64,000 bases of DNA. It comes from an uncultured Planctomycetaceae bacterium. Its GTDB lineage: Bacteria > Planctomycetota > Planctomycetia > Planctomycetales > Planctomycetaceae. The notes below the pieces were generated by a model. It saw only the letters and a list, made by a program, of their open reading frames with translations, made no database searches and was not told the DNA's origin. Shown here one piece after another: positions 6,059 through 60,934 of this stretch. The stretch is from assembly GCA_964573505.1 (NCBI GenBank), contig CAZNMS010000003.1, positions 2,052 through 66,051 of the forward strand, in the 5' to 3' direction. Numbering within the stretch: position 1 is the stretch's first letter; each line of letters starts with the position of its first letter. The position numbers were made by a program, and so were the translations under genes.

Positions 6059-6127
6059 GGATAGCTCGCTTCGAACGGAGATGAGGGAATTAGGTGTCCG
6101 AGCCTCGGAGCACCGAACTGAGATGAG

Positions 6128-7043: not shown

Positions 7044-7081
7044 GCGGGCATGTCGTTCAAGATTCGAGAGAGGCAGTTCCC

Positions 7082-7145: not shown

Positions 7146-7149
7146 TGGC

Positions 7150-10560: not shown

Positions 10561-10693
10561 GAGATCAACCTTTAAGCGGGCTTAGTTTCAAGCGTGCGTC
10601 TCAAATGGTGTCGACGCGCTGATGTAAGAATCGTTGCACGGCCTCAGGGTTCAAAACGCGGCTCCGAGTTGACGAGTGCCGGTTCTCAACGCG

Positions 10694-12711: not shown

Positions 12712-12789
12712 CCGCACGCCCATCGGGCTGCGCTTTTCGCAAGTGGAGCGTCACCCGCAAAGCTCCGCCCGCACAGCGAGGGGGCGCGG

Positions 12790-13098: not shown

Positions 13099-13190
13099 AT
13101 AGCCCCTGCAGTCCGTTAGGGGCGGGAAGATTTCGTAGACCCGACCCCGGTACTTTCAGCTACATCCAATACCGTCTTCGATTCACCGAC

Positions 13191-16704: not shown

Positions 16705-17392
16705 CGCGTGCTCCTGAAACGACGGTGTTGATCTTTGCGTCGTCAATCATGCGGCGACTAGCAATCTCGGCCTTGTCTAAAGCCCGCTGGCACTGTCGCG
16801 CAAGATTTAGGATGTCAGTTTCATCTAGGGCAATACTGAGGCTGTGGTTGCCATCGCGGCTGTCGTAATTCAATCGCATGACGAATGCGACAACCGCACC
16901 ATCAACCTTCAGATCTTCACCGTCGTCATTAAAGACCGGTCGAATGTCGGTGACGATTCGAATTCCTTGCAGCAAGTTGGCATGGTCGTAAGCCAGATCG
17001 AGTGCCTTAGAAACGGTGCGAATCGATGGCGACTGAAGCAGCTTATGAAGCTGCGGTTCGACTTCCTCGTTCCAACAACGCTTCTCAGCCTCGGCCCACT
17101 CAGGTTCTGCCCGACCAACCCCGTCCCGAAGACCCTCAAGAACCTCTTCGACCGACATTTCCCGCTGACGGATAAGCTGGACCAACGCAAAAATCGGTCG
17201 CATCAAAGCATTAACCTGAGCGTCATCCTGCAGAACTTCGAAGACGGCCAAGTGCAGTGTTTGGGGAGCAAGCGGCAACGGTAAAAGCGAAGCCAGCTTT
17301 TCAATGACTCGCCGGAGATTCTCAGCACCAATCTCGTAGATCACCCTGAGATCGCGAAGCTGCGATGAGCTGATCTGAATCTGAGATGGCAT
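16682..17392 (-). CDS. hypothetical protein (ORFan), first gene of the trio
   Basis: 236-aa ORF with an ATG start at 17392. The N-terminal half looks helical and the C-terminal half looks beta-rich. I recognise no motif. Confidence 0.55.
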   Translation of the reverse strand: MPSQIQISSSQLRDLRVIYEIGAENLRRVIEKLASLLPLPLAPQTLHLAVFEVLQDDAQVNALMRPIFALVQLIRQREMSVEEVLEGLRDGVGRAEPEWAEAEKRCWNEEVEPQLHKLLQSPSIRTVSKALDLAYDHANLLQGIRIVTDIRPVFNDDGEDLKVDGAVVAFVMRLNYDSRDGNHSLSIALDETDILNLARQCQRALDKAEIASRRMIDDAKINTVVSGARDESNKCI

Positions 17393-18020
17393 TTGACGTC
17401 TTTAGATGAATGAAGCACCGCGACCGAAGTTTGTGGGCGGGCAATCTACGACCAAGAGGAATGATTTCAAGATGCTCAGGCGGCCCGAATTCCAAGATGG
17501 CTGCCATTACTAGACCCGCAACATGGGCGACTCGATATGCAACAGACTTCGATCGACTGTGTGCAAGAACTCATAGCAAGTGGCATCAAGTTACCAATCG
17601 CAGCGTTCGAAAATGCATGCAGCGACTCCAAGCCGTTGAACCAATGACGCTTCCACCGAGTTTTTTGATGCCACGAAAGGAACGCGGTTATTGCTTGGCA
17701 GGATGAGCCCGGACGTAATTTCAAAATGATGACTTCGGGAAGTAATTCGATCCGCAAGCTGCAGTCGCTGAGCCGTTTGTTGGTTCAAGAAGCTGTTTCA
17801 GGTTTGATTGAGAATTGAATTCCCTATCACGGCGTCTGGCCGACCTCTTCTTGGAGAGGACTCTCAGAGGGCCATGCGGTGTAAGCGATTCGTCGAGTGG
17901 ACTCGAAAAGGCGATGCGACGAGCACGGATTGAAGACGCGATGCTCGCCGGTCTGACGGGGCCTGCGGCTTGTCGTCGGAGGACGCTATCGTCCGCCGCC
18001 TTTGATCCCCGCACGCATAC

Positions 18021-18026
18021 AGGAGG
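18021..18026 (+). promoter_or_regulatory. Shine-Dalgarno-like AGGAGG 7 nt upstream of the kinase ATG
   Basis: acAGGAGGaagcgtcATG (ATG at 18034). Confidence 0.55.
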
Positions 18027-28147: not shown

Positions 28148-28330
28148 GTGATCGACTTCGAGGCTGACATGAGACTGCGCCATTGGCTGAGTGGGGTTGC
28201 TGCTGCATTTCGTTGGACCAATCGAGTCAATCGTCGCACGCAGCGCAGATGGTTGCTTCCCGGCTTCGCGAAAGGACGCTTCGAGCGTCGCTCGGAGAGT
28301 CTTGAGCAGCGGCTGCTTCTATCCGGCGTA
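28148..28330 (+). other. Non-canonical Arg-rich N-terminal leader ending ...RRSESLEQRLLLSG
   Basis: M(IDFEAD)MRLRHWLSGVAAAFRWTNRVNRRTQRRWLLPGFAKGRFERRSESLEQRLLLSGVSVG. There is no long hydrophobic h-region. Confidence 0.5.
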
Positions 28331-31300
28331 TCGGTCGGGGACGGGCAGCGGTTCGGGACCGATGACGTCATTGCGGCTTTGCAGGTTGATTCTTATTCGC
28401 AAACGGCCGGCGCGGTTCTCTCCATTGAGATTGGAGGAATTGTTGCAGGCGCGGGCGTTGATGATCCGCTTGAGGGCTACGATCAGATCAATGTCTCCGG
28501 CGCGGCTCAGCTTGCGGGCACGCTCGAAGTGCAACTCGTTGACGGGTTCGTGCCCGAAGTCGGCGATACGTTCGACATCCTCAAGTTCGGCTCCGTCAGC
28601 GGGTCGTTTGATCTTGCGATCGGACTGTTCGGCATCGGCGACGGGACGATCTTCTTTGAAGTCGTGCAGCAACCCGATCGTCTGCAACTCGTTGCTCGGG
28701 CAATGGAGCAGCAAGATGTTGAAGTCGATGACCGAGATCCGTCGGTCAATAACGCGTTCGGCATGCTGCTGAATTCGAACTACTTCGGCTTCGATACGTT
28801 CACGATCACAACGTCGCTCTCGATCGGCGAGTTCTTTCAAGCGTCGGGCACGATCACTCTCAAGAGCAGCAATGAGACCGTCACGCTTGCTGACGGCACC
28901 GCGATCAATGCCGATGTGATTCGCATCGGCGGCGACGACATCAATGCGTTTGCCGGAGTCGGCGGGCCGTACTTTGTTGATAGTGACGATGACGGCGACA
29001 TCGACAGCGATGATGTGCCGAACGACGAAGCAACGGGGCTCGCCCTGCATGATGTCGACTTCGCACTCGCACTGCTGACGCCTGCCGAGTTACCGAGTGG
29101 CAGCGCGCCACTTCTGAGTTGGGCCGCGCTCAATGCGACGGCGAGCAAAGCCGAGTTCGTCGGCGTTGATGATGTCACGATCGAAGCGACGAACATTTCG
29201 GTCGCGATGAATCTTGTGCGCGGTGATGTCACTCCGGCGGAAGCGCCGAGCAAAGTCGTCAACTTCGCGCAGCAACCGCTGAGCGTGCTGACCGCTCCCG
29301 GCAAGACGATGTCGATCGCACATGACGGCTCGAAGGGCGAGCTGATGCAGGCGGTCGCTGACATCAATCTTGAAGTCGGCGAGTTCTTCTCGCTCGAAGG
29401 CCGAGTCGGCATCGAACGCTCGGCGAAGACCGTCGCGTTGTCTGATGGCTCGACGATCAATGGCGATGTGCTCGCGATCGGCGGCAAAGACATGACGGCC
29501 TTTGCGGGCATGAATGCCGGCAGCGCGGATGAACTCGGGCTCGTGCTCGATGATGTCGACTTCGGCTTAGCGATCGTGCGCGATCGCGATGATGCGTCGC
29601 GCGTCTTCCGCACTCTGCAAGCGGATGCCGGACTCGCGGATCTCGTCGGCATCGACAGTGTCGTCGCAACGGGCACTGAATTGAGTGTCGGCATCAATCG
29701 CGGGCCGTCGCTGACTGGTCCCGTTGCGGACTTCAAGACGACGCCGATCTCGCTGCCCGATGACATCTATGAGATCAATCTCGATGGCGCGAAAGGCCGA
29801 CTCAATCAAGTCGACGGACATCTGCACGTTGAGGTCGCGGACTTCTTGCAACTCGACGGTGACTTCGCGGTCGAGCAATCTCAGACAACGGTCACGCTCA
29901 CTGACGGCAGCACGGTCGATGCTCAGAAACTGACGATCGGCGCGAATGACGCGTCGGCGTTCGTCGGGATGAACGCTGACGGAGACGATGCCATCGGGCT
30001 CGAACTTGAAGACGTCAGCTTCGGAGTCGCGCTGCTCAGCGATACTCAGCAATCGAGTCGGCAATGGATCGCAGCAAAAGGTTCTGCCGAGAGCGCGGAG
30101 TTCGTCGGCATTGATCCGCTGACGGTGCGCGCCGAAGAGTTGCAGTTCGAACTCAATCGCGCGGCGAAAGACGGCTCGCGCATCGACTATGTCGCGCACC
30201 CGCTGACGATCCCGACGGGACCGAGCAGCGATGTCTCGATCGACTTCAACGAGTCGCGTGCTCGCGTTACCGGACATGCCGAACTCGCAATTGCCGAGAA
30301 CGTCACCGTTGAAGGCAATGTGTCAGTGACCTTTGAAGAGATCGTTTCGACGAATCCCGGAGTCATCGCGAGCAAGAAGACGACGCGCCGCGCGATCGTC
30401 GGCATCGGCGATGCGAACATCTTCGTCGGCGATCGCGGAAGCAGTGATGACGCTGTCGGGCTCAGCATCACGAACGCGCTCGGCGGCTTCGTCTATCAGC
30501 GCATTCAAGGTTCGACCGATCCGACCGAGAAGCCGACCGGCTATGCGATCAAAGCCGACGGCGACGTTGCTCTCGTCGGCATCGACGGAGTGACGGTCTC
30601 GGGCCGAGTCGGCATCGCGATGAATAAGACCGGCGCGGCACTCAATGAGGTCATCGAGTTCCCGAATGCGACGAACGGCGAGACGAAAGAGATTCTGCTC
30701 GGCTTCCCCGATTCGGATCCGCGCATCCTCGTGACGGGCAAAGGCGTTGATATTGATCTCGTCGGCGTTGCGAAGTTGAAGGGCGATATCGCGATCACTC
30801 CGACGAATCCGGCAATGGCGGCTCAAGGCGCAGTGACCGGCACGAAGCTGCTGTTCGCGGCGAACAACGTCGAAGCGTTTCTCGGGTATGACGGCAAAGG
30901 ACTCGCGATGAGCGGCGGCGAGTTCGGCGCGATCGTGATTTCGAACGGCGTGCAATCGCTCGGCAAAGGTTCGCCCGGCGGCATCGCGATCAAAGGCAAA
31001 GGCAGCGTTCGCACGGAGGGGCTCGATGTCACGCTGATTGGCGATGTCGACATCCTCGTGAATACGACCGGCGCGGCGATCGATGAGTCCGTCACGCAAC
31101 TCGACGGCACCGTGATCGACGTCAAGTTCGATGCGGGCAATCGGATCTTCAAACTGTTCCCGAACAACTTCGATGTCGCGCTCGACGGCATCGTTGCGGA
31201 CGGGCTCGATAGTCTCGGCGACTTGCTGAGCGGCATCGCAGCCGACTTGCAGCCCGAGTTCGATATCGACGGCGCGGTCATCAACGTCAACCCGCTGAGC

Positions 31301-34300
31301 ATCCCGCTGCCGGGCACGAACATCTCGGTCGACGGCATCGTCGGCATCAGCAAGCTCGTGCGAATCGGCGACTTCATTAAGCACTATCTCGATCCGACGT
31401 TCCTGCCGAGCTTGCCCGCCGTCGTTTACGGCATCGACGGCCCGACGTTGCGCGGGCTCATCGACTACCTCAATGCGCAGTGGCTGCCGTCGCTCAAAGG
31501 CTTCAATCCGGTCGACTTCAAAGGACTCGATTTCACATTCGACGATCAAGGCTTCTCGCTGACGTTCGATGCCGCGCCGACTTTCAATCAATCGGCGGAC
31601 CTCAACTTCGGAGCGGGACTAGATGCGCTCGGCGTCTCGTTCGATTCGAACGCCGCGATTGATCTCAATGTGAAGACCGACATCAGTCTCGACTTCGGCG
31701 TCAATTGGATCGACGGCTCATCGCGCTTCGACATCAACAAACTCGGACTGCAAGCAACGGCGAGCGCTGACGATCTCTTGCTGAGCGCAAAGGTCGGCCC
31801 GCTCAAAGTCGCGATCGGTGATCGCAACGCACAAATGGGGCACGTTTCAGCGGCGCTCGGCGGATCGGTTTCGTTCGTCAACGGCGAGTTCGATTTCACT
31901 CCCGGCACGAACAGCATCTCGGCGGACTTGCCGCTCTACGCCTCATTGAGCGGAGTGACGCTCGGCGGAGTCAGTCCGCCGCGCTTGCTCGCCGACATGC
32001 AGTTCACGGGCCCGAATCCCGACTTCAACATCGTGCCCGTCGACTTCGAGAAGTTGCTCGACTTCCGAAATCTCGGCATCGCGCAACTCGTGCAGATGTT
32101 TCCGGACGTGCGCGACTTCTTATCGAGCGTCCTCAACGTCGACGCGCTGAGTACCAAGATTCCGTTCGTCGATGTCTCGCTCAATCAAGTGCTCGGCTTC
32201 GCAAAGGCGTTCGATACCGACGTCTTGCAGAAGCTGAATTTCAATCGGCCGCGCGTTGATCTGCTGACGGGACTGACGGGCTCGATCGCCGCGAATTCAA
32301 AGCTCTTCACAGCGCTCGGTGCGAACTTCACGAGCGACCTCATCGGGCAAGACCTTTCGATTCTCGCACCGGACGGTTCGCTTACCGCGACCTATCGCAT
32401 CGCCGCGATCCCGAACGCGACAACGCTCGAACTCGAAGTGCCTGCAACGGCGGCCGTCACCGACAAACTGTTCGTCGTGCATCGTCCGATCGAGCCCATT
32501 CAAACGCTGCAAGAGTTCGTCGTCGCGATTAACGCAGCGGGCATTCTGCCGCCGGGCTTCAACGTTGCGTTCGATCCGGTGACGCAAGTCTTCTCGATTC
32601 CACTCGGCTTCAAAGGCACATTGCCCGCAGTGAATGCACCGCTCGATTTCGGCTTCGACTTCGGCGATGCACTCGCACTGGAGACAACTGGCACCGGGCA
32701 AGTCAACGCGGGAGTCGAGGGCAGTCTTGCGATCTATGTTGATCTCGACGGGCAGACGGACGTCGCGCCGAGCGGCTCCGTAACGGCGGGCAGCAACGTG
32801 CTGAGTGTCGCTGCTGACTTCTTCCGATCGGACATGCTGCAGCGCGAAGTGACGATCGACAGCACGAGCTACAAGATCGCGCGGATCATCGACGCGCGGC
32901 ATGCGGAGCTTGATCGAGCTGCCGTTCGCTCGGCGGCGGACAAAGAAGTCACCGTGAAGAGCGGCATTGAGTTCGGCATTGCCGACGCGAAGCTCGCGGG
33001 CAATCTCGGACTTGCCGTCAACAACATGAGCGTTGCGGCGCAACTCGGCTTTCTCGGCATTACGGCCGGCGGTCCTCAATCGGGGATCAGCATCGACGGC
33101 TCTGCGAGTCTCTCGCTCGATCGACTGCCGGGTTCGGGCATCGCTGCCGATCGTCGCTTCTCGGTCAATGATCTCTTCAGCGGCGACGCGTTCGATGCGC
33201 TGCACTTCGACTTCGGCGGCAATGCGACCGCGCGGCTGAAAGGGCTCAAAGTTGATCCCGGCTTCGGTGCCGAATTGCCGATCGCTCCGAGTGCTGAGAT
33301 CGCAATCGCCGTGCAGAACTTTCTCGATCTGAGCAAGGTGCAGACGATCTTCTCGTCGCCGTCGTTGCCGTTCTCGCTCGATGTTGCGAAGCAGTTCAAC
33401 AACATCATTCCCGGCGCGGTCGTGCTCTCGTTGCCGGATCTCGGCAATGCGTTCGACTTCGCGAAAGTCGGACTCGTTGACATCGTTCACGGAGTGCAAG
33501 TCGGGCTCGACTTCCTCGATGCGGCGCTGATCGATCAGCCGTTCTACAACGTGCAATTGCCGATCATTAATCGCTCGCTCAAAGACGTCTTCGGCTTTGC
33601 CGGAGACTTTGCGGCAAAGCTTGAGGGACTGTCTGCTGATCCCGAAGCCGCACTCGCTCAAGCAGAAGCGCTGATCGAAGCGGCGCTCGGACTGCTCGAT
33701 AACAACTTGCTCGACTTCAACGATCAGATCTTCGGATTGCGTCTGAACGGCAATGTCATCGACGTGCATTTGGGGCTCGGCGCGATCTTCTCTGACACGT
33801 TCGGCTTCGCGCTTGATCTCGGCACGTTGCTGCCCGGAGTGAACTCGGTCGGCATGCTGAGCGATCTCGTCAACGCCGACGGAGCAGTGACTCTTGAAGC
33901 GCTCGCGAAGCTCTCGATCGACGTCGGCATTCGCGCGGACTTAGCTGAGCCCGAGATCTTCCTCTACGACTACCGCACCGAGCGCGACATCAATCGCGAC
34001 GTCTCGAATCTCATCTTCTCAAGCGTCTCTTTCCCCGCCGGTAGCAGCACGCTGAGCGAGACGCAGTACGCCAACATTCGCTCGCAGATGCAGAACGCGA
34101 TCAACGCGGCGCTCGCGGGACAACCGGAAGGCGCACGCGTTGAGAAGCTCCGTGCAACAGTCGTCTCTGCGGTCAACGGAGCGAACGGAGCGAATGCCAA
34201 TACCGATTCAATCTACGGAGCGGGGCAGCTTGCCGGTCGTCGTCAAATGGCGATTCTCGCCGTGCAAGATCGACTGAGCCGCGAACTCGGCGTTGAAGTG

Positions 34301-58300: not shown

Positions 58301-60832
58301 CTCATCGGCGGTGCTGCCGTCACTCAAGCAGCCGGCATCACATCTCGAAATCTCGCGATCGAGTCTGTCGGCAACATCACATTGAACCGCACTGACAACA
58401 GTGTTCCCGGTCGTCTCGCGCTGCGAGCAAGCACGGGCAGCATCGACTTCGTCAGTCAATCAGCGTTCGACATCGCCCGAGTCGATCTCGTCAACGGAGT
58501 CGCCGCCGGAGGCAATCTGCGACTGGTCGCGAACGCAACCGGCAGCGATCGCGACGTCATGCTCTTCAACACTTCGGCAACGAACGACCTCTTCGCCGCA
58601 GGCAGCTTCAACGTCTCGATCACCGGAGACGACGCGACCTTCACCGTGCAAAAGGGAGCGGTCATCAAGTCCTCTTCCGCCGACGCAAAGACCGCGCACG
58701 TCATTGAAGTCGACGATCTCGATCTGCAAGGCACGCTCATGGCGCGGAACAATCGAGTCACACTGCGACCCGCGCATCTCAATGACGCCGTGCTACTGGG
58801 CGGTGACGAACGTAACCAGCAAGCGCAAACGTTCGAACTGAGTGCCGCTGAACTCAGTCGCCTCACTGCAACAACACTCGAACTCGGTCGAGCCGACTCG
58901 ACGAGCAATCTCACTGTCACCGGCTTCGTCGCATCGCCGAACACTCCGACGTTGCGACTCAATACCGGCGGCGACGTGCTTGCTCCGAACGGCCAATTGA
59001 TCGTCACGAACCTCGCGGTGACAGCCGGCGGTTCCGCAACGCTGACCGGTAACAACAACATCGAGACGTTCGCCGCGAACGTCGGCACGCGTCGCATTGC
59101 GAGCCTGCAATTGAACGACCTCAGCAACCTCTCGCTCGGCAACGTCGACGGCATTAACGGAGCGACCGCGACCGAATGGCTCACCGTGACCTCAGCGGGT
59201 GCGTTCGGAGTGACCGGTAATGTCAGCGCTCCATTCGGCGTCACACTGACCGCAGCCGACCGCACGCGAGCCGATCAACTCACCGTGTTCGAGACCGGCA
59301 CGATCAGCAGCAACATTGCGGTCACGTTGACTGCCGGAGACCGACTCACACTGCGAACCGGTAGTCGAGTCACCGCAACGCGCGGCAGCATCATTCTGCA
59401 AAACGGAGCCCCCGACGTGCGCCCCGCAACGGTCAGCGGCACAACGATCGACGGCACGCTGACCGCATCGGATGCAATTACGGTTACAGAAGTGGCCGAC
59501 AATCTCCGAGTGACCGGCAACCTCACTGCGAACAACGTCATCGCGCTGATCACTCAAGCTGACGACCGCGTGCTGACAATCGCCAATAGCGGTGCCGTAA
59601 CCGCAAAGAACTCGATCACTCTGACTGCCGACGAAATCGACTTGCTATCATCGCTCGCGCTCACCGCACCGCTCGTCACATTGCGTCCGACCGAAGCGAG
59701 CGAGTCGATCGTGCTCGGCCTCAACTCGAACAACCGCGCCGACACACTCGAACTCAGCGACGCTGAACTCGACCGCATCGCCGCAACGACCATTCGCATT
59801 GGTCGCAACGACGTCGGAGCAGCAGCGGGGCCAATTACGCTCAGCGGAGCGATCGACACCTTGCAGGCTTCGACCCTGCATCTCATCACCGGAGCCGGCA
59901 TCGACGGAGCAAGCGGCAGCATTCAAGAGACATCGCTCGTCGTCGAAGCCGCCGACGTTGTGACTCTCAACTCGAAGCAAAACAAAGTCACCGACTTCGC
60001 CGCCCGAGTGACCGCGCCGCAGTCACTGCAATTCGTCAACTCGCAATCGCTCGGCATCGCAACGATCGACGGCATCAGCGGAGTGACTTCGCATGGCGAC
60101 ATCGCGCTCTCGAGCGTCGGCACGTTCACGGCCATCACGCCGATCACAACGACATCAAGCAACATCGCGCTGACCGCCGAGCGCGGCAACATGCTGCTCA
60201 CTCAACCGGTCACTGCGGGCACGAGCGGGCAAGTCACGCTGACCGTCATCGGCTCGACGCTGAGCAAGCCTTACACCATCACTTCAACCTCAACGGTCGG
60301 CCCGAAAGTGGTGCTTGTTGGCACCAGTAAGTTGCTGACGATTCCGTCGACGCGTCTCACAGTCTCCGCCCCCGTTCGCAAGACCGAGATCACTCAATCC
60401 GTCGACGCCGCAACGCTCGAGTTTCTCACGCAGTCGGCGATCAACGTTTGGGCCGCCGCCGGCTTGAGCACCTCTGACCTCGCAAAACTGCGAAAGGTCA
60501 AAGTGCGTTTAGCCGACCTGAATGCGAACGGCCAAAACGGGAACTTGCTCGGAGCAACCCTGAGCGACACCGAAATCATCCTCGACGAAAACGCCGCCGG
60601 CCGAGGATGGTCGCTCCGCGCCAACGGCCCCGTGACGACAAACCGAGTGGACCTCATCAGCACGATCGCGCACGAACTGGGTCACACACTGGGCCTCGAT
60701 CACAGCAGCAGCGAAGACGCGGTGATGTCCGAGTACCTCAGTCTCAACGAGCGTCATCTCCCAACCGCCGCCGACGTCGCCGCCCTCGACGCACTCTTCA
60801 GCACCAACAACCCCGCGCTCATCACCGACTAA
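28148..60832 (+). CDS. giant mosaic exoprotein (10,894 aa): RTX block, C-type-lectin-like domain, 20-residue-repeat solenoid, C-terminal metzincin-like domain
   Basis: A single open frame of 32,685 nt (GTG 28148; first ATG 28169). The translation is coherent throughout (repeat modules, recognisable domains), whereas all antisense ORFs are short and Arg/Ser/Pro-biased. Confidence 0.88.
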   Translation: MIDFEADMRLRHWLSGVAAAFRWTNRVNRRTQRRWLLPGFAKGRFERRSESLEQRLLLSGVSVGDGQRFGTDDVIAALQVDSYSQTAGAVLSIEIGGIVAGAGVDDPLEGYDQINVSGAAQLAGTLEVQLVDGFVPEVGDTFDILKFGSVSGSFDLAIGLFGIGDGTIFFEVVQQPDRLQLVARAMEQQDVEVDDRDPSVNNAFGMLLNSNYFGFDTFTITTSLSIGEFFQASGTITLKSSNETVTLADGTAINADVIRIGGDDINAFAGVGGPYFVDSDDDGDIDSDDVPNDEATGLALHDVDFALALLTPAELPSGSAPLLSWAALNATASKAEFVGVDDVTIEATNISVAMNLVRGDVTPAEAPSKVVNFAQQPLSVLTAPGKTMSIAHDGSKGELMQAVADINLEVGEFFSLEGRVGIERSAKTVALSDGSTINGDVLAIGGKDMTAFAGMNAGSADELGLVLDDVDFGLAIVRDRDDASRVFRTLQADAGLADLVGIDSVVATGTELSVGINRGPSLTGPVADFKTTPISLPDDIYEINLDGAKGRLNQVDGHLHVEVADFLQLDGDFAVEQSQTTVTLTDGSTVDAQKLTIGANDASAFVGMNADGDDAIGLELEDVSFGVALLSDTQQSSRQWIAAKGSAESAEFVGIDPLTVRAEELQFELNRAAKDGSRIDYVAHPLTIPTGPSSDVSIDFNESRARVTGHAELAIAENVTVEGNVSVTFEEIVSTNPGVIASKKTTRRAIVGIGDANIFVGDRGSSDDAVGLSITNALGGFVYQRIQGSTDPTEKPTGYAIKADGDVALVGIDGVTVSGRVGIAMNKTGAALNEVIEFPNATNGETKEILLGFPDSDPRILVTGKGVDIDLVGVAKLKGDIAITPTNPAMAAQGAVTGTKLLFAANNVEAFLGYDGKGLAMSGGEFGAIVISNGVQSLGKGSPGGIAIKGKGSVRTEGLDVTLIGDVDILVNTTGAAIDESVTQLDGTVIDVKFDAGNRIFKLFPNNFDVALDGIVADGLDSLGDLLSGIAADLQPEFDIDGAVINVNPLSIPLPGTNISVDGIVGISKLVRIGDFIKHYLDPTFLPSLPAVVYGIDGPTLRGLIDYLNAQWLPSLKGFNPVDFKGLDFTFDDQGFSLTFDAAPTFNQSADLNFGAGLDALGVSFDSNAAIDLNVKTDISLDFGVNWIDGSSRFDINKLGLQATASADDLLLSAKVGPLKVAIGDRNAQMGHVSAALGGSVSFVNGEFDFTPGTNSISADLPLYASLSGVTLGGVSPPRLLADMQFTGPNPDFNIVPVDFEKLLDFRNLGIAQLVQMFPDVRDFLSSVLNVDALSTKIPFVDVSLNQVLGFAKAFDTDVLQKLNFNRPRVDLLTGLTGSIAANSKLFTALGANFTSDLIGQDLSILAPDGSLTATYRIAAIPNATTLELEVPATAAVTDKLFVVHRPIEPIQTLQEFVVAINAAGILPPGFNVAFDPVTQVFSIPLGFKGTLPAVNAPLDFGFDFGDALALETTGTGQVNAGVEGSLAIYVDLDGQTDVAPSGSVTAGSNVLSVAADFFRSDMLQREVTIDSTSYKIARIIDARHAELDRAAVRSAADKEVTVKSGIEFGIADAKLAGNLGLAVNNMSVAAQLGFLGITAGGPQSGISIDGSASLSLDRLPGSGIAADRRFSVNDLFSGDAFDALHFDFGGNATARLKGLKVDPGFGAELPIAPSAEIAIAVQNFLDLSKVQTIFSSPSLPFSLDVAKQFNNIIPGAVVLSLPDLGNAFDFAKVGLVDIVHGVQVGLDFLDAALIDQPFYNVQLPIINRSLKDVFGFAGDFAAKLEGLSADPEAALAQAEALIEAALGLLDNNLLDFNDQIFGLRLNGNVIDVHLGLGAIFSDTFGFALDLGTLLPGVNSVGMLSDLVNADGAVTLEALAKLSIDVGIRADLAEPEIFLYDYRTERDINRDVSNLIFSSVSFPAGSSTLSETQYANIRSQMQNAINAALAGQPEGARVEKLRATVVSAVNGANGANANTDSIYGAGQLAGRRQMAILAVQDRLSRELGVEVTLLAGEQVVAANSTEMNQTRAFKEVRAVVAVPVSVEQATGTHLTIGTRIAGEGLNLGFAVGPISMSVNNGYAVLDGDGVAATRDFALFTVAVDQTSGTPHDDGKYHILSESLSENLQFSTTGRLDVNLPTQLNLGELSYDLSAPIRLQTPPELGSLGLSNLLTGLSGLPIPGNFPALNFTLPDIRAEFTRLGGSLSLVSLLNDPTKIFDGLDFALGSLEDIFDKVTGADLPFLGDNLQQAARFINGLRAGILNQLKVNVGSPDQLIEDIQLALFRAFGPNGLNILKDVSLDGLINLGDIPIQWRDLNGNVLGDWIKNAQLPDGSLDSIQFGLQLGGKLLNTGIDLPLDIDLPGFQFNVNGGFGLEMDWGFDFGFGISVSDGFYVTTKADENDPEFKFSVAAYLDGTPNTPGVTTAFVGTAQLAFFDATIRDNNRANGKPSGLDGLLSLNLKGNAAHRLTINELQSQPLETTFNPNFVVDAGLNLAVSLETPAASMMPKLKTDLVADFDWDLKNGPQVPQIDLQNLRVSVGSIVADFLRPIAQRIQGTLEPMRPLIDKLTQTIPGLDRFLPDATVMGLVNLIMKVQGKPAINWDFVYAGKEMLRLVDLVAAMQADGEILLGSLTGMGLPNPRAIAAAFDLNSLPANFRNGLLDIQQKSVGRSPVGSTERSGFKTIEYLRDINNWLKILQGGDATLFTYEMPLLGFSSGFDVPIARVGVDRLNFGVGAKGSFNAAVDLAFGYDTFGARAALSSKNPLDLLDGFYVADFSLPQFRNFQVVAGTGGVEKDEAKIDLSIGLNAGASFAVVRGGLSGSVNFKFGADLQDIAKSKLIKDANGNVIGATYISDGKIRGSEFDTMYNYQNGGFANLFNLQGEANARASAYVDVYYVLDWGNVFDATLFNTQLFKVDHKAPQVAPTLATKVGSTLYINSGSRAGDRKYFNTKDGNEKFILNGSGGTVNVEFDDWYQTYSGITHVVADMGAGNDVFDASRLNGVTVNVTGGAGKDRLFTGSAGGTLDGGAGKDVLTGKDGPDVLIGGDDNDRITAGDGNDSIDAGAGDDRIVAGAGNDSVTAGDGADRITGDAGNDSIDAGAGDDRVTAGDGDDTILAGSGNDIVSGDLGNDAIGGGDGDDRITGNDGNDILSGGSGVDRIEGQNGNDMLDGGDGNDALDGDAGDDSIFGGAGSDLINADAGNDLVDAGADDDRINGSDGDDSLSGGSGADWIEAGRGNDQLSGNGGNDLLVAGIGNDVLDGGSDDDHLLTGDGDDTARGGDGADSLSGTKGNDVLSGDGGNDTIEGDAGNDWIDGGDGDDQLSDSAGNDTLGGGRGNDAVNGAQGDDVYFFVNNWGDDLLSDFSGFTTFDFSAVATPTVSNITPAFNEVVSSSGDRARLSNSPVVSLVLGSGNDSLFVRDHLNRAFNVRDVGGNDTYELTLGQPTAARSVAIDDQSGGNALRIEQIAATAPLGISSQLLTNGKESVTFSNTFRTLDVFGSGARFDGSAVDALGGGLVIAAIPGATQINVPYEFRATGSSIDLQAPLSAPAITLESFATLDIDQRLNAKQNGYIDARVYGDSSNILLNETLTVSAGADLNGGGAGWMRLTAPDGSISPRFGTSIIGTSSTLMLTAGGSAGASHEPLETRVARLHAVTSLGGSGSVIVHEADDLALTAQGHFSPTNNNGLVINPSYQWLAAANWDNSLSDDWRDELVDGIDRFAVATGNGSIDISLAAPGSVLTLTDAEVIARRNGDDIALTADDFEFVSGENRINGTGELNIRATTDAQSYRIGSAAEHSAGSDLTPLQRDEFVDLGVRDFAAIGDNFEHVAIGHRSSANTMLIGDVSDAPTLKSTSTPRSDAAALRNSTTFFANTITVAGVVQAPIDRVAFNAFRAEIQNKNLHLPLGAPDSGVSGREVAFNLNEQLLVTGFVNGSQLVDIDITDSTGNGGFYSPTGRAISLRVDNAGSITGTQSGSRVDIDTNAEIEIAGVLEVKGANSQLDAYAGSKLTVVAAGLVVGRDTNDVLSLRAGELVSIMPGSAVTAGAAFNNSSGKPVPYKTAEGADVIINSPHELLIGGSVTSSDGMTLGAGTPRFNHRDYFQSIAVADPNHPLLTQTQYAFLLTGTLTTLADNSLLALDSASDVIIRGNINVLGANSDLRLQSDRFVYVEGFLDVRDDLQILGAATTDGRLLNRSNPRLGSSVYVHATANVVTRDAGSSIDIKGGQDVDLFGTVVSGGTITASGVDFTGPSSSLSVTAGQQVFVDTGLLASGTITLNGGIAGVTAAEAAALATPATEHLGVYISTAGGATTRGLTTDGSGGGVTITSKSDIELLGNITAGADVRQSFDSKGKFLGQSFTYSTEPARITIDTDGQAFIGGHTLNKAGQLVTTGTYLRAAQAIDINGDQHESRKALIVHAASELTVNDPNGEITLSSGQEAEILGMFVAGGRIDAQYDPQGNYLGRVPVYFDGDSTITLKAGGQLEIGQDVVAGKTINVIGGSGIAGDTTGLVIQGSGRLLTNRPNSAINFTAPGTINLLPPGHINEIEATGFIPTANGVLTQDVTLVIEVDRVDFAYRGTATLTAAATADNKGIADLRDDIQRALSNGNYIVTRSNNAAHPLGSAFTELADDPTSAGLVDPDITVKLHNGKYVFASPYRLQMLDSSSNAHLLGFYFPTSTLHSNRVYAIDAPQPGSVINFGDPNSSSGKAIIGGKVRAYSAINVPGTGLNVPAGLDLGVTGVLETINGSINLYLGADGIIKGELIAGGNGSDIKLTADNSLTIRGHLTAADQIVLTGGRTQSAGHVDLLIEPTAQLRSNGGGGSIELNAQNDLIVDGIVGPNSTALRLVALQSSDGKLLVTKSAGQVLADAPLVLKGDVVDIQGVVRQTKSASDLGALPQYAATNYSGFAAVIDGRTSTTITGDLQTVGSLRIDADGDIDIYNTTVANVGDGSRLVLTGGNITFGRDAIDADGKAFRQGAILTARDEISIDVSGTVDIGSGIKLATPDEHSKVSISAGAINIAGSVFAGANLDGEWTGTGADLTLAASRSIRFGGTGLDANGQSIAVGGNAKATGTLSIVQPTSQSSASASPTSSASPAPQLTIDARSALRVSSTGDGKLLATAPGSINIDVARDVQIFGTLEATALGDDISLTSGELILIDGFVKAADQLGVSGGTDETGVSLMLNPLILLTNADGELINSSGAPLGANEDPVRVSGGVLTTGPGGDITLAGDQALAINGNVGQPRSSSGVLITDTDSVTVTKAGHFAVLGRVEATNSIRVNATDITLGQDAVLKTRGIDGEIDLRAANNLIVSAGQSNTEPALIESAQQVHLLGNVVSFAGEAFAHADDGRVLINAVSNVTIYGDVTATSALNINSGVAANWTDEQLFGVIRVADLVGGDVLVVGALTSIDGASQIQAGRNVNVEGAAAVAGATVSRPRPVIVQTPQTIQVVTGSRQVVDGTIYVPVVTYVTTTVTEQVGTEEVRIGSYFNTADISLNPQGYYYLGAINGGSLLDYYRNYFVEGIDYFNSSIDWSNVAPPAEGTVFGALNDAQRNLVLGQLGYSEYYYSSYANLQTHQTINGIPTVTPWYPSWLNAPTVPVNFNLPGFDNKLILVPEGSQLDVLRLVSQGEPTKHTAVVGRYRDKAVVSYTQDRSHYMSDTSRSLQYDPYSRNADANGYVYKELPTTDFDNSSTRFAVNYSGGGQREFEINNRIAPGVRNVQLNRVPDWVSSPERTEGTDQLGTTIYAPDGYAAPDTYLDNWDITGSHPGQLVGIDPLGVFHPTTYTLSTGTANAGGAIELAFQPWGANEIHYSNDSSKQHAAWIENAVQQQRVDVVANDEHVWIGALRFTTFAWTFQNLGGGAFFINQDGMPYTHWGEGEPNNLGGNEIGVEFRPNGDWNDWVASNLLKYVYQTNSYWESAPIYETFYDGGGNWRNDWKTITDKRTTYRFQMVTNAHDIYGLRPKFETFEVTTKNVASKAETQWRTEPIYEDQTILVTQRVYEAASAAPAASFSGDSIAARTDITLAAGQDAVISGVLRASGTDSTINVTAGRDAIIRGVVPNGAALGTLPATAELLADGAITVSAARDVTLNTSSLLRVDADGTAETRSDITLNAGRDLAMNGPLEALGAITGTAGRNLRVTDQLSGPNSVAATNIDLRAGRSGTGNITGTIDTVLNASSSIALHAGTTSGNLQFVNSDVSASSTGSVSLVATGGALNMLGGNIKSQRLNATFRDGFTANTTAAEYDLQALGVGNVDLTNFGNVEFVSPLVVDGNVSLTNFGNVTLPSVTTTGSAASHNVAITTRPAAFGAGHLALGHFSANGNAAINVSGTFTRTQSSAVRANAVTLSAANSSLDLTTDITSLVYQTRGSGNLSINNVGSRALTVDLSVLDGAMTVVTAGALNVVKALGLTNRDANDIALSASGDMQLGLVNAGVYAASNDDARAIRLQYLSAALRAAGVLGANTPDLTPATYATLDRAAARTALINAISANDVSNALTPEQEAAEADRQLDLQHTLTSHGDITLTSGGLISELSNASFAADSAVDLIADALTVTTVGGFSGLEVALNSASVAATSSGSIELIDSDGIGNPLAGLTVSRATTPNGSITIDTPGSLDVGFITAGGAGSNLTMTAHGGRLTLQPVSGNATPVTAGSGLFLTSGENIDIKSGFSAPDSISLVAFNDVIAPGTLSLTVNQNIRLETGASLVLPGTFRANGDVTLISNAGNVSVTGTIGGNGGSLSSLAIIARGNRVESGAFRGQFQFRSLVNGQTYYGSLPDVTRENVVRDSNGNIVARPLSLKLTPYQTMQTTGVKDPVTGLEFYRDPATGVRYYRRAEDQRLFSWQLPNGLYPFSGINLLSGGASNFYSTTENPDVGTLYLGADFSVPIARSNVTALDKSYTEIFDAAIKARVVPETYGSVDDGRSSGATVDITTASISSVTNSLAMQAQGQVALGSFVPAVTSSTGSLRFAQGENVVVPASWRAANITALSSGLVDPNGNMLGGDVTLAANPTRSDGSAIGVLDLSALGTINLAVTPNPTVGLAVSYGNNILNLPSSISLSASNSFIEIHQHDSLSNARNLFANGHVTLESYAGTVSVSNGTISGSGSNLSAVRLIAANEIIVDPGRVAASLWDISGRFRIGDATGSTAILNTGSLLFRSGSTYVADINSSSYDVLNVSGTVALEPHVNLQLNGSRTETFMLISNDGSDRMTGQFENYPLRSFHDIGGTEFRVVDVLNDNDFGFATPGNLSVTSLPPGTDVRVFLDGEYLVITQNGIVVSRTHTMLIAEVTIDAPVNLQTGNGDTGGTISLDLATNSFVQTTPNETSPTIRFSNLQSLVINGGAGTDNLVLDNSGSSSDSTIAITGDSITGLGATPISFSGLDALTIDSGSGDNAFSLSGNLPNLILNTGEGGDDISINGSITSLSLDTGTGSDALHFSGTITNLVLNTGSGADEISLSGSLGTLSVDTGNGEDTDDVSIVGSFTTLNLVTGAGADNVTVGASNAGATINLDLGDDGVPDALTIRGNDGGSSTAISASSGYGLAFNRTDGTQINAKNIADGELTLDLGTGDDLVSVNFANGNPIPTGGITVNGGGQSSDTGDILAINGAGQVGAASYTPDPTTFGNGKLSFGSAGSIDFTGLEPVIVSNVASLVMTTTGSVDDIAFAAVDYSGNAAVNISGTSDGIGFELLTFFDVDNFELDLGTNDIIGGGNGNDIVRFVEHASHSIADVGASLTINGGSGSGTLTITGAAEVSDLTINSGSGNDSLTFTSVTAESLTLNTNSGDDVVNLSGSITSLDIAAADGADSITVNADVATLTVSAGNGDNSLALGGTSTTAKLITRSGSDTVSITGEHAALDIETGDASDSVTIASTSTTIRIDAGTDSASDVLTLSGSATSYDLATHDGADAISLDIAFNTLTLAAGTGSDAVALQANQANSTATLDLGTDAALDHFTFNAGAIAAALTLTAEATGLALTRADGTALHLINATTDALTIALTDAASSLTVDFSNGTAVPTGGLTINGDADALGVSNDDITLIGAGALTSAAVTPSVGITDAAQLSLNGAFGARSIAVTHIANATLDEIADLTVTTPGSSDDIALTGATVRSSSGLTLTGSSDSTDFTTLHLARIGTLHLDLAANDALNSGSGADVVSLTNGPSNIPTLAASGTDFDITTGAGIDNLNLSGDLNDVTLHSGAADDVLNIRGTSQSLLITTDAGADSLTIDGTHASLNVDFGDGADSLLAGHADEILMTPSLPLDLTAATLLGGSGADRFEIYGALGTTTLQAGADADALSLDVTAKSLTVTTDDGTASDAADSFTLSGEVTALTLATGAGEDSVSISGTHGSLDLSTGSDADNISLLGSATHVTLTSASGTDNITINGDFANLDVDSGLDADTISIAGTSSKLNVQTSDGDDSLTLTGTHGTTTLDTQAGADGLTISGTYTTLTASTGSEADTVSLDITGTTIVLATDDGADLINISGAIADLSLDTGNHSDTVNVLGEHQLVDIASSDGDDVLTLNAAIATLDVSTGSGADTLTVRNEIRTAVIDTGTENDALNVNADINSLTANTQAGDDSITINGSTLTLGINSAAGADQLIINGFMDVMTIETGTEADTVAIDTEFTRLALTANTGSDEIDLRTNSAGAVATIDLGSDSDLDHLTFHGTSADNAVLVRKESTGVEISRDDDTVVHAVHIETDTLTLPLDSSNDVLTVDYVNGNPIPTGKLIVDGESPSTSLADKLRIQGRDAIDSLTYLPSGTTFGSGSFIATGDFGTREIVFSNIENLSVAGINDFTAVTANSIDDITLANAIEDNTAAIRITGSSDDLNITPLSFYDVTTFILDLATHDSAFERSGNDSLTVIDNASTASTIANALTVLDLKTGAGADNVSINAALGTAMLDTNIGSDTITQTGSAVRLNITTDSGDDSITLDGAISSLNLTTSSGIDLLTMHGKHGTAVVDTGNENDTVSSDATFNALTLATQAGNDVVLFSGDITTLVMTNGSGTDAITIHGHFGSATIDTGTEADTVSSDALFSTLNLNTNTGADIVDLRTNSANAIANVDLGTDTDFDKLTFHGTSAANDMLLKKEVSGVEISREDHTVVHASQIESDTLHLELDVENDVLTVDYVNGNPIPTGKLIVDGEAPTSAPGDKLRLLGRGLIDSLTYLPSSTTFASGVFTTSGAFGTRDIVFSSIENLAVSGINDFTITTPNSVDNVTLAATTEDEAAAVRFSGSSDGISLSPLNFYDVTRFHLDLATHDAVSMTNESGNGNDQLALTGTRAANEVFARGLNDVELRSTRAGAIDTDNVDFLGNVRVLRDLDVHDFSTINIAAAITADRDIRFTHFDSLTSTAPVTAGRELTLIADEIHLDALATFIAPTIGLRPFTTDLPIELGGTSDNRVGVLELSDAELDRIRTDLLRIGFKTAPNRTSTELVVPTRIVDGPIDGSAGPISIIGSVTIDPANIPNLHLLTGSSLTQTAPLQVLNLAVTADDAINLPLFSNNIDSTLTLHSDWSFVTFNNSNGYSIGLVDAQSGLNAFGGSVMLSVAANPADQNLRVTNTRPLSDVYARDEITISLLGAEARFIIDTDARLESKDPLVPNRSGLVHRITADNMDLGGDILAVGQRVVLQPLTAGTALQVGRAVTTDSARTLELNDSELDRVVSKLLDVGRNDDRAAASITLNGIVTPQFASTLHLKTGGDINGANGSIGVANLALSVAGSALLTNASNQLGTLAGVIGSSGSGSLDVVDQSILTIGDADTLSGLSASGSIAISTQNAFTIRRDITAAGAIELTSRDRNTDADDLIINAGVAIRSTGNSVTITTGDDLTVLQSVVINAAKNITVTAGANAIDPTLKSVAALNGTLSAGANIALTNGSGPITLDAALTAGDAITITQTGDDQLFSATNALTAVSNINITADDINISSTSTLSAPGVLLQPAEAGERIILGATTQNRADAFELSDAELDRLSAIAVRIGRRDELATGDINVESALTMVAPTLHLIGGAAVTQAAGITSRNLAIESVGNITLNRTDNSVPGRLALRASTGSIDFVSQSAFDIARVDLVNGVAAGGNLRLVANATGSDRDVMLFNTSATNDLFAAGSFNVSITGDDATFTVQKGAVIKSSSADAKTAHVIEVDDLDLQGTLMARNNRVTLRPAHLNDAVLLGGDERNQQAQTFELSAAELSRLTATTLELGRADSTSNLTVTGFVASPNTPTLRLNTGGDVLAPNGQLIVTNLAVTAGGSATLTGNNNIETFAANVGTRRIASLQLNDLSNLSLGNVDGINGATATEWLTVTSAGAFGVTGNVSAPFGVTLTAADRTRADQLTVFETGTISSNIAVTLTAGDRLTLRTGSRVTATRGSIILQNGAPDVRPATVSGTTIDGTLTASDAITVTEVADNLRVTGNLTANNVIALITQADDRVLTIANSGAVTAKNSITLTADEIDLLSSLALTAPLVTLRPTEASESIVLGLNSNNRADTLELSDAELDRIAATTIRIGRNDVGAAAGPITLSGAIDTLQASTLHLITGAGIDGASGSIQETSLVVEAADVVTLNSKQNKVTDFAARVTAPQSLQFVNSQSLGIATIDGISGVTSHGDIALSSVGTFTAITPITTTSSNIALTAERGNMLLTQPVTAGTSGQVTLTVIGSTLSKPYTITSTSTVGPKVVLVGTSKLLTIPSTRLTVSAPVRKTEITQSVDAATLEFLTQSAINVWAAAGLSTSDLAKLRKVKVRLADLNANGQNGNLLGATLSDTEIILDENAAGRGWSLRANGPVTTNRVDLISTIAHELGHTLGLDHSSSEDAVMSEYLSLNERHLPTAADVAALDALFSTNNPALITD
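28830..30430 (+). repeat. Four diverged ~150-185-aa N-terminal modules of the giant protein
   Basis: The recurring core G.I.L.S...TV.L.DG(T/S).(I/V).(A/G)D.L.IGG.D..AF.G(M/V) starts near 28833, 29385, 29842 and 30300. Confidence 0.7.
37295..38315 (+). repeat. RTX (hemolysin-type Ca-binding) nonapeptide repeat block, about three dozen units
   Basis: Continuous GGxGxDx(L/I)x pattern: GGAGKDRLFTGSAGGTLDGGAGKDVLTGKDGPDVLIGGDDNDRITAGDGNDSIDAGAGDDRIVAG...GGRGNDAVNGAQGDD. Confidence 0.88.
45700..46019 (+). other. C-type-lectin-like domain (Cys-less) with EPN and WND motifs
   Basis: ...HVWIGALRFTTFAWTFQNLGGGAFFINQDGMPYTHWGEGEPNNLGGNEIGVEFRPNGDWNDWVASN... EPN is at 45917-45925 and WND at 45974-45982, both in the giant-ORF frame. 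Confidence 0.65.
50440..55520 (+). repeat. About 50 copies of a strict 20-residue (60-nt) repeat in four blocks, nested in 1.24-2.1-kb super-repeats
   Basis: Consensus L.(L/V).T(G/S).(G/D).D.(I/L)(T/S)(I/L).G.... The blocks span about 50440-50860, 51490-52150, 52796-54285 and 54925-55520. The super-repeat marker V(D/N)(Y/F)(V/S/A)NG(N/T)(P/A)(I/V)PTG is at 51008, 52303, 54434 and 55671. Confidence 0.85.
56400..60300 (+). repeat. Five ~220-305-aa modules marked by (L/F)EL(S/N)(D/A)(A/S)EL(D/S)R(I/L/V)
   Basis: The marker is at 56507, 57251, 58172, 58832 and 59746. Alternating spacing implies a two-module super-repeat of about 1.58 kb. Confidence 0.8.
60400..60832 (+). other. C-terminal metzincin-like zinc-protease domain
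   Basis: HELGHTLGLDH at 60671-60703 (HExxHxxGxxH), followed by a Met-turn candidate ...EDAVMSEY (Met at 60725-60727). It is preceded by ...IILDENAAGRGWSL... Confidence 0.7.
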
Positions 60833-60869
60833 GGGATCGTCGGTGAATGACTTCCCGAATTCGTCGCAT

Positions 60870-60934
60870 GGACGCCTACGTCCGTGCTTCCTGTTTGTTG
60901 CAAGTTCATGCGGGTCGCTCTCGGACGTAGGCGT
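60870..60934. repeat. Hairpin repeat between convergent genes (possible bidirectional terminator), relative of 22557-22613
   Basis: GGACGCCTACGTCCG-(37 nt)-CGGACGTAGGCGT, 38 nt after the giant-ORF stop. It shares the loop segment gtcgctct with the other copy. Confidence 0.6.

Follow-up and report, generated by a model that had tools for sequence, protein, structure and literature searches.

A planctomycete giant gene with a LEPR-XLL-class N-terminus, predicted to encode a calcium-binding fibre with a cysteine-free lectin-like insert and a terminal matrixin-like domain

Giant RTX adhesins exported by type I secretion systems (T1SS), such as LapA, MpIBP, SiiE and FrhA, are huge, acidic, Cys-poor and repeat-rich surface fibres that are exported unfolded and carry Ca2+-dependent RTX repeats and ligand-binding inserts, including sugar-binding ones, on a long stalk; their RTX block and secretion signal are C-terminal and their T1SS genes are usually adjacent. 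Giant genes also take a large share of the coding capacity of planctomycetes, and for none of them, to our knowledge, has a function or a route of export been established. In these bacteria, genes of more than 30 kb are a documented trait (PMC5177795, PMC12673574), and proteins of at least 10,000 residues were reported to be frequent in the Planctomycetota-Verrucomicrobiota-Chlamydiota (PVC) phyla (preprint 10.1101/2023.11.21.568195). The LEPR-XLL (or LEPR-8K) giants form a class that is already named and barely studied. Among them are Cag_663 and Cag_665 of Chlorobium chlorochromatii, proteins of record size that carry a 24-aa LEPRxLL domain, are preceded by sapC and have a tolC homologue between them; both were reported to be expressed and to arrive in the partner cell, in their models an N-terminal extended β-sheet without structural relatives is combined with a Ca2+-binding β-helix, and C-terminus-first export through a sap-type system was proposed for them (preprint 10.64898/2026.03.19.712371). 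SapC is predicted to be an enzyme (PMC2938197). Another member, a protein of about 8,000 residues from Vibrio sp. VB16, has a LEPR-XLL domain at its N-terminus and, at its C-terminus, RTX and serralysin domains (PMC10868602). The window analysed here is a stretch of 64,000 nucleotides from an uncultured Planctomycetaceae bacterium (GCA_964573505.1, contig CAZNMS010000003.1, positions 2,052 to 66,051, forward strand), and its central element is a single giant open reading frame (ORF; Table 1) whose product of 1.12 MDa has a pI of 4.26, abounds in G, A, L, T, D and S and lacks Cys altogether, for which the chance probability is about 2e-24 at a Cys frequency of 0.5%. With somewhat better than even confidence, we read this product as a Ca2+-binding surface or secreted fibre of the LEPR-XLL class, bearing a lectin-like domain and a terminal protease and exported by a T1SS-like system encoded elsewhere.

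The assignment to this cross-phylum class concerns the N-terminal ~1,000 residues and, at the level of sequence, follows from the homology of the leader motif, the first domain and the tandem modules (E down to 1e-262). The N-terminal 1,500 residues, used as a query, retrieved 38 homologues from Methylococcales, Betaproteobacteria, Anaerolineae, Verrucomicrobiota and Pirellulaceae, many of them named 'LEPR-XLL domain-containing protein, partial' by NCBI, which share the leader, the first domain and the modules and are nearly Cys-free. An earlier reading of the window made from the sequence alone (the sequence-only reading) had found no described family that fitted the protein, which proves wrong for this N-terminal part. 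The leaders of the relatives begin with a K/R-rich stretch followed by LE(P/Q/D/E)R(I/V)LLSADP, and the variant LEQRILLSADP occurs in the bona fide relatives P0028 and P0045. The first domain is homologous to that of LEPR genes from Opitutaceae (L119, 2e-24), Chlorobiaceae (L115, 3e-20) and Planctomycetia (L063, 6e-12), and also to P0018, P0019, P0021 and P0036. A back-translated LEPR(I/V)LLSADP pattern was found at no fewer than 120 genomic sites across many phyla (at least 120 matches; loci L006-L125, hereafter LEPR loci), and the module family is present in 91 of the 120 leader-bearing genes among the matches listed. The giant protein resembles the LEPR-XLL giants in its basic N-terminus with an LExRxLL motif within about 60 residues of the start and no hydrophobic core, in its homologous first domain and tandem ~153-aa β modules, and in its size, near or complete lack of Cys and Ca2+-binding repeats. 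It departs from them in the motif itself, LEQRLLLSG instead of LEPR(I/V)LLSADP, in the lack of an adjacent SapC or TolC gene, in the internal position of the RTX block, in the collectin-type lectin insert and in ending with a compact matrixin rather than an MtxA-like or RTX end. The Vibrio member likewise combines LEPR-XLL, RTX and an M10-type annotation (PMC10868602).

Table 1 Positions of the giant gene, its parts and related features (nucleotides counted in the window, or in the locus where one is named)
Feature	Residues	Nucleotides	Strand	Remarks or basis
Giant ORF	1-10,894	28148..60832	+	GTG start; 10,894 codons; 51% of window
Basic N-terminal leader	8-70	28169..28357	+	pI 12; 22% K+R; without hydrophobic core
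LExRxLL-type motif LEQRLLLSG	52-60	28301-28327	+	ends leader
First domain after leader	71-222	28358..28813	+	motifs GDTFDI, FFEVVQ
Five tandem all-β modules, ~153-185 aa each	223-1010	28814..31177	+	self-BLAST, alignment, homologues
Non-repetitive region without assignment	1011-3013	31178..37186	+	no Pfam, NCBIfam or PDB-sequence match; no significant periodicity
RTX calcium-binding nonapeptide block, 387 aa, ~40 nonapeptides	3014-3400	37187..38347	+	HemolysinCabind
Region without assignment	3401-5480	38348..44587	+	no Pfam, NCBIfam or PDB-sequence match
Aromatic-rich, AT-richer insert, ~570 aa	5481-6050	44588..46297	+	composition
Cys-less C-type-lectin-like domain	~5856-5962	45713..46033	+	C-terminal end of insert; PDB matches and motifs
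Region without assignment	6051-7350	46298..50197	+	no Pfam, NCBIfam or PDB-sequence match; no significant periodicity
Four super-repeats	7351-9360	50198..56227	+	each a 20-residue coil array, then a ~250-aa 'NGNPIPTG' module
Five LELSDAELDR-type modules	9361-10700	56228..60247	+	~2.5 copies of a ~530-aa unit
Matrixin-like (M10) zinc-protease domain	~10737-10894	60356..60829	+	Pfam, profile, AlphaFold2, Foldseek
HELGHTLGLDH	10842-10852	60671-60703	+	HExxHxxGxxH zinc site
Terminator-like GC-rich hairpin		60866..60887	+	34 nt past stop; consensus scan, 1 found vs 0.4 expected, weak
SapC-family genes beside LEPR genes		L014:2258-3031; L115:5668-6423; L119:2725-3411		PF07277

Self-BLAST and alignment resolved five tandem modules (aa 223-406, 407-560, 561-713, 714-870 and 871-~1010), of which the last two are degenerate, so that the β-rich modules of 150-185 residues recognised in the sequence-only reading stand as a type, one short of their true number. 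AlphaFold2 modelled three of them together (aa 223-713, 12-row alignment) as a continuous all-β structure with antiparallel strands of 12-20 residues (pLDDT 86.4, pTM 0.82), for which Foldseek returned no meaningful match in PDB or BFVD (TM ≤0.22). An outer-membrane barrel was considered and set aside, its hits having TM ≤0.19; the composition of the modules, acidic and poor in aromatic residues, also disfavours a membrane barrel. From this model, the ~153-aa module that defines the family may be an undescribed long-strand architecture common to the LEPR-XLL giants, and it resembles, by published description, the N-terminal extended β-sheet without structural match of Cag_663. Module 1 carries an Asp-rich insert, VDSDDDGDIDSDDVPNDE (window 28976-29050, aa ~277-301), which is shared with the relatives P0031 and P0018 and by eye resembles Ca2+ loops of the thrombospondin type-3 or dockerin-like kind.

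The RTX block, a stretch first put at about 340 residues, is clearly supported by nine HemolysinCabind stretches (Pfam, E=2.6e-55), ten exact GGxGxD motifs and periods of 9, 18 and 27 residues (z up to 12); the NCBIfam RTX-family matches are confined to the repeats, which are predicted to form a β-roll. In the super-repeat region, hydrophobic residues recur with period 20 (z up to 16). The 20-residue coil has the consensus SGADTVSISGTFTTLTLDTG, in which Asp4 is the sole invariant position and the first half resembles an RTX nonapeptide, and the coils could form a solenoid with one Ca2+ site per turn. An iterated hidden Markov model (HMM) identified 34-38 coils with confidence (aa 7459-9092); the some 50 copies of a strict repeat counted in the sequence-only reading are thus real as a repeat, reach that number (~51) only at a permissive threshold and are not strict. 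Of the five modules named after (L/F)ELSDAELDR, all are present, three with the exact motif (aa 9454, 10009 and 10534) and two degenerate (LELNDSELDR at 9703, FELSAAELSR at 10230). They have 15 distant relatives, mostly proteins from metagenome-assembled genomes (MAGs) of planctomycetes, and because one of these, P0003, bears a TPS/Haemagg_act domain, the sequence hints at a shaft like that of filamentous haemagglutinin (FHA). The giant protein shares with FHA and other TpsA proteins the long repetitive β-rich C-terminal modules, but has no N-terminal two-partner secretion (TPS) domain (no PF05860 match) and no TpsB, POTRA or barrel gene in the window. Hydrophobic solenoid periodicity was significant only in the RTX block and the 20-residue region, and regular β-solenoid periodicity elsewhere was accordingly rejected; the long β-helix-like stretches suggested earlier could not be confirmed, with no Pfam or PDB match and periodicity confined to those two parts. 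Pfam was searched with pieces of 5,000 and 600 residues and NCBIfam with pieces of ~1,000 residues, and neither returned anything beyond RTX, the metzincin and a sub-threshold LEPR-XLL; PDB sequence searches with four large unassigned or repeat segments gave no match. From aa 4688 onward, the unassigned region preceding the insert is 65-74% identical in an orthologue, L126, described below.

The lectin-like domain lies in a segment that differs from the remainder of the gene. At nt 44600-46300 the GC content falls to 0.52-0.57 and that of third codon positions (GC3) to 0.625, against 0.73-0.76 elsewhere in the gene; aromatic residues make up 14% of the insert, and with 45-56% identity it is the least conserved segment relative to L126. 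Because a GC3 dip is also present in L126 (~3000-4200; 0.66-0.71 versus 0.78), the compositional anomaly appears ancestral to both lineages and not a recent acquisition. In the lectin-like domain, VWIGA (5886), EPN (5923) and WND (5943) occur with canonical spacing. A phmmer search of the lectin segment against PDB returned 52 sequences, all C-type lectins except HIV gp160 (E=1.3), the best being MBP-C (1e-5), with CD23 aligned over ~90 residues; a two-sequence profile of the giant protein and L126 matched SP-D (2.3e-6) and also SP-A, collectin-11 and the mannose receptor. VWIGA, GEPNN and WND are kept in L126 although the region is the most divergent between the orthologues. The likeness is to collectin-type C-type-lectin-like domains (MBP, SP-D, CD23), with which the domain shares correctly spaced WIGx, EPN and WND and to whose class all significant PDB matches belong; unlike them, with their two or three conserved disulfides, it has none, being Cys-free, aligns significantly over its C-terminal ~40-90 residues only, and is bacterial and embedded in an aromatic-rich insert of 570 residues. 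No homologue was found with the lectin segment among 5.8 billion clusters, nor with the central region of the giant protein in genome and metagenome scans, and L126 is the only orthologue found to have the insert, which by these searches looks particular to the lineage of the giant.

At the other end, the matrixin-like domain (matrixins being the matrix metalloproteinase, MMP, family) has all three His, the catalytic Glu and the Met-turn AVMSE intact, and the protein stops 9 residues past its last helix. Pfam Peptidase_M10 (PF00413) scored 39.5 bits against a gathering score of 24, covering profile positions 95-158 of 159 only, and a profile of the domain matched karilysin in PDB (1.3e-7). The AlphaFold2 model (pLDDT 83.8) retrieved karilysin and MMP-9, -11 and -12 in Foldseek with probability 1.0 and TM 0.48-0.58. 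Compared with karilysin and the MMPs (MEROPS M10A), the domain shares HExxHxxGxxH, the Met-turn, helices A, B and C and the order of the β-sheet; however, structural similarity reaches only TM 0.48-0.58, the domain is compact (~155 residues) and sits at the extreme C-terminus of a protein of 10.9k residues, the cysteine-switch pro-domain is absent from this Cys-free protein, and the S-loop with the structural Zn/Ca sites is apparently missing, judging from a short inter-strand segment in the alignment. A search for relatives of the domain gave 3,024 cluster representatives, in which it often forms the extreme C-terminus of a large protein. Among the 150 top relatives (P0054-P0203; query window 60188-60829), 87 keep the full HExxHxxGxxH and 42% have lost it; together with the four internal copies observed in P0056, this loss suggests, at sequence level, that in some hosts the MMP-like domain is put to non-catalytic use. 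An LE(D/E/A)R leader and a C-terminal matrixin occur together in P0066, P0090, P0116, P0122, P0130 and P0136. The Arg-rich non-canonical leader, the Cys-less lectin-like domain, its AT-richer patch and the terminal HExxHxxGxxH domain, all picked out in the sequence-only reading, have therefore each been borne out, in the case of the lectin by PDB matches and conserved motifs.

The absence of Cys, the pI of 4.26, the RTX block, the invariant Asp of the 20-residue coils and the conserved Ca2+/sugar-site motifs of the lectin-like domain all point to an extracellular, Ca2+-dependent protein, and the description of a giant mosaic exoprotein holds to the extent that the product is of an exported type. 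In the reading we favour, the protein would leave the cell unfolded, fold externally as Ca2+ binds to the RTX block and the 20-residue coils, and form a very long fibre, either on the cell surface or away from it. The lectin-like domain would bind glycans of the mannose, N-acetylglucosamine or fucose type and the protease would be displayed at the distal end, and from this combination of glycan binding and distal protease the protein might combine several functions as an adhesin or attack fibre directed at the surfaces of particles, algae or cells. The most speculative step is that the protein would exit C-terminus first by a T1SS-like (sap-type) system whose genes lie elsewhere in the genome, in which case the basic LExR leader would emerge last and serve retention or recognition. 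The absence of Cys together with Ca2+-dependent repeats is a classic trait of T1SS substrates, whose signals follow no reliable sequence consensus. Our best guess is a T1SS-like route, taken C-terminus first, with an exporter encoded at a distance, because of the absence of Cys, the Ca2+-dependent repeats, the SapC and TolC links at the level of the class and the model proposed for Cag_663/665.

The SapC link was found outside Planctomycetota. In 26 of the 93 loci whose upstream sequence is long enough (28%, among the matches listed), a SapC gene lies 136-670 nt upstream of the LEPR motif, and the SapC-positive loci include Chlorobiaceae and Opitutaceae; in 28 SapC-positive loci the gene was co-directional in 18 and divergent in 10. 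For L014, the Pfam E-value for this family (PF07277) is 1.4e-71. This arrangement mirrors that of Cag_662 (sapC) and Cag_663 in Chlorobium chlorochromatii. One further relative adjoins a complete set of outer-membrane efflux protein (OEP), ABC and membrane fusion protein (MFP) genes, and an RTX ORF lies directly 3' of another.

Several results weigh against the favoured reading. No T1SS gene (ABC, MFP or outer-membrane protein), SapC, TpsB or barrel gene is present in the 64-kb window, where SapC was searched by tblastn, HMM and hhalign, and no exporter gene lies beside the orthologue L126 or upstream of P0116, a result in keeping with the earlier remarks that no cognate exporter is encoded beside the gene, which holds within the window, and that the export route is open. 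ABC, MFP and OEP genes occur in none of the 120 LEPR loci among the matches listed (8-kb windows), and SapC in none of the seven LEPR loci of Planctomycetota/Phycisphaerae among them. The C-terminus is 7,500 residues away from the RTX block, and the protein ends in a folded protease domain, which makes the architecture not canonical for a T1SS substrate. The class motif itself scored under the cutoff of its NCBIfam model (NF012209, aa 50-60; 14.2 bits and E=0.026, cutoff 17 bits). Of the families named earlier for a Pfam search, HemolysinCabind and Peptidase_M10 matched, but Lectin_C (PF00059) gave no match even at E≤1 with a 600-aa segment. Finally, for about 8,800 residues, Pfam, NCBIfam and PDB sequences offered no detectable relative whose structure or function is known. 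One ORF of the window (16682-17392, minus strand, 236 aa, no Pfam match) was tried as a remote SapC and rejected (tblastn E=1.4, HMM E=0.2, hhalign probability 0.4%).

Relative to the giant T1SS RTX adhesins, the protein is likewise acidic, free of Cys and repeat-rich, with RTX repeats, but these lie at aa 3014-3400 of 10,894, its C-terminus is a protease, no T1SS gene is found within the 64 kb, and the stalk lacks BIg or cadherin-like domains (no such Pfam match). At the C-terminus, Pfam and NCBIfam revealed neither an autotransporter barrel nor a C-terminal sorting domain of the type IX secretion system, the MMP-like domain being there instead. With the planctomycete giant genes (Reva & Tummler 2008; Kohn et al. 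2016, PMC5177795) it shares a single gene above 30 kb, a predicted content in adhesion, carbohydrate binding and calcium binding, and a lineage-unique character without conserved synteny; whereas that category is defined by size only, a family assignment of the N-terminus and a domain map are added here. The novelty that remains after these comparisons resides in the disulfide-free collectin-type lectin insert and in the export route.

The most serious rival to the T1SS-like route is one in which the basic LExRxLL leader is itself the targeting signal of an undescribed Planctomycetota export or anchoring pathway, independent of Sec and of T1SS, with N-terminus-first exit or anchoring by the leader. 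We consider this a real possibility, if well short of probable. Leaders of this class are found widely on large planctomycete proteins whose passengers differ greatly, some of these proteins being matrixin-ended, and across phyla conservation of the motif is strong (at least 120 genomic matches), as would be expected of a recognised signal; the lack of SapC in all seven Planctomycetota loci and of T1SS genes near all 120 LEPR loci, among the matches listed, and an RTX block that is not C-proximal, fit this route as well. On the other hand, no candidate machinery was identified, in other phyla SapC and TolC accompany leaders of the same class (preprint 10.64898/2026.03.19.712371), and a Cys-free protein with Ca2+-dependent repeats is what is typical of T1SS substrates. 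In its boldest form, which we put forward tentatively and consider unlikely as a whole, the leader would mark a Planctomycetota export or anchoring pathway that is undescribed and involves neither SapC nor a linked T1SS, and the giant protein would be one of its cargoes, a Ca2+-stiffened fibre with a new long-strand β-sheet N-terminus that, guided by glycans, would grapple with a collectin-type lectin free of disulfides and cut with an MMP-like protease at its distal end.

A different role, that of an effector or attack fibre delivered on contact, which has been proposed for Cag_663/665, with the protease and the lectin acting on or in another cell (prey, host alga or partner), appears rather improbable to us. 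The closest experimentally studied members of the class are indeed transferred to a partner cell (preprint 10.64898/2026.03.19.712371), predation has been linked to giant genes in a related PVC phylum (preprint 10.1101/2023.11.21.568195), and the terminal protease has an active site that, by sequence, is intact. Nevertheless, neither a toxin, pore-forming or immunity gene signature nor a partner-specific context was found, a fibre with a lectin fits passive adhesion equally well, and the likeness to Cag_663/665 is drawn from their published description.

Export by Sec or Tat, with the Arg-rich N-terminus as an atypical signal peptide, is very improbable: the leader does contain twin arginines (TQRRWLL) and a short hydrophobic stretch (WLSGVAAAF), but an h-region of 10-15 residues and a signal-peptidase site are both missing from it, no hydrophobic segment is present in homologous leaders, the motif can start as early as residue 4, as it does in L074, and a folded Tat substrate of 1.1 MDa is implausible. 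The absence of an h-region and the position of the motif in L074 led us to reject a Sec or Tat signal in the leader.

Whichever route applies, the gene offers a full-length, selectively maintained example with a mapped architecture, and ties the planctomycete giants to a cross-phylum class that includes the largest known bacterial proteins. Three separable activities are predicted, namely Ca2+-dependent glycan binding, zinc-dependent proteolysis and export dependent on the leader or on the C-terminus. The SapC neighbour outside Planctomycetota, the bracketing of proteins by leader and matrixin, and the module without structural relatives could help to define the secretion and the build of the class.

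That the gene is genuine is indicated by several lines of evidence. The other two forward frames contain 284 and 290 stops over 28148-60832, so that the 10,894 open codons cannot be due to chance, and the uninterrupted frame covering 51% of the window, as first described, is upheld; the true start is probably the ATG at codon 8 (28169). Tandem Repeats Finder detected only five arrays over the 33 kb, short and imperfect, and no near-identical DNA repeats, and by self-BLAST the youngest internal duplication (aa 8513-8938 versus 8925-9358) is 58-62% identical as protein, which together rule out repeat collapse or expansion by the assembler; an assembly-collapse artefact was rejected for want of repeats at the DNA level. 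The orthologue L126 (metagenome contig Ga0172376_10000792), found in an alignment-guided metagenome scan and open from the first base of the locus, is collinear with aa 4688-10662, with 57% identity over 6,056 residues followed by the same terminal domain, which further allays the concern over collapsed repeats voiced in the sequence-only reading. P0055, a fragment of 3,573 aa, represents a second orthologue, with 54% identity over 3,145 residues, so that a search for orthologues, also proposed there, has yielded two. Identity between L126 and the giant gene at codon positions 1, 2 and 3 is 0.68, 0.76 and 0.56, and the Nei-Gojobori (NG86) dN/dS of 0.40 is an upper bound, dS being near saturation. 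GC3 is 0.737, against 0.72-0.73 in ruvB, yebC and the DUF1559 neighbour, and a horizontal origin of the whole gene was rejected on this match; the closest relatives of several segments are proteins from Pirellulaceae or from Planctomycetes MAGs, which together with the DUF1559 neighbour indicates a planctomycete host, probably similar to Pirellulales. By these sequence criteria (the codon-position identities and dN/dS with L126, the fragment P0055 and the neighbour-like GC3), the gene is native and under purifying selection. An assembly chimera or a decaying, unexpressed relic, for which the draft genome of an uncultured organism gives some room, is already largely refuted and of negligible probability, given 10,894 codons without a stop, the same order of parts on an independent contig, a dN/dS of 0.4 and internal repeats that are at most 62% identical as protein and undetectable as DNA repeats.

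A Planctomycetaceae relative of the giant, L004 (GCA_053538655.1, JAJREG010000070.1), is broken into more than 12 consecutive ORFs on the same strand, probably a frameshift-ridden assembly of another giant gene, and its splitting illustrates how such genes come to be under-reported.

The giant gene stands alone, since its upstream neighbour is divergent and its downstream neighbour convergent. The latter encodes a DUF1559/N-methyl protein, of a family whose expansion is a hallmark of planctomycetes. Elsewhere the window holds a chemotaxis cluster, a phosphomannose isomerase gene, a Ser/Thr kinase gene, ruvB, yebC, genes for TPR proteins and a few ORFs of unknown function, and Rfam and tRNA scans of the window found nothing. 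The chemotaxis cluster (1340-10560, minus strand) is complete, with CheR, CheB, a dCache/HAMP methyl-accepting chemotaxis protein, CheW and a hybrid CheA with CheW and receiver domains. At 11662-14819, a type I phosphomannose isomerase is followed by an ORF of 583 codons with weak, sub-threshold matches to GT-C/PMT_2-like mannosyltransferases; the presence of mannose-related genes 13 kb from a protein with an EPN (mannose-type) lectin-like domain is probably a coincidence. The kinase gene (17815-22527) encodes a Ser/Thr protein kinase of 1,570 residues fused to long TPR arrays, a combination typical of planctomycete signalling proteins.

Synteny with the orthologue is not conserved, because the giant gene of L126 is followed directly on its 3' side (L126:19592-27464) by genes for a Cas4-Cas1 fusion of 578 residues and a Cas12b-like protein; a comparison of conserved neighbours, likewise suggested in the sequence-only reading, therefore found different genes there and no exporter. 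The locus is a type V CRISPR-Cas locus, and its 1,697-aa protein with a C2c1/Cas12b RuvC-like domain is unusually long.

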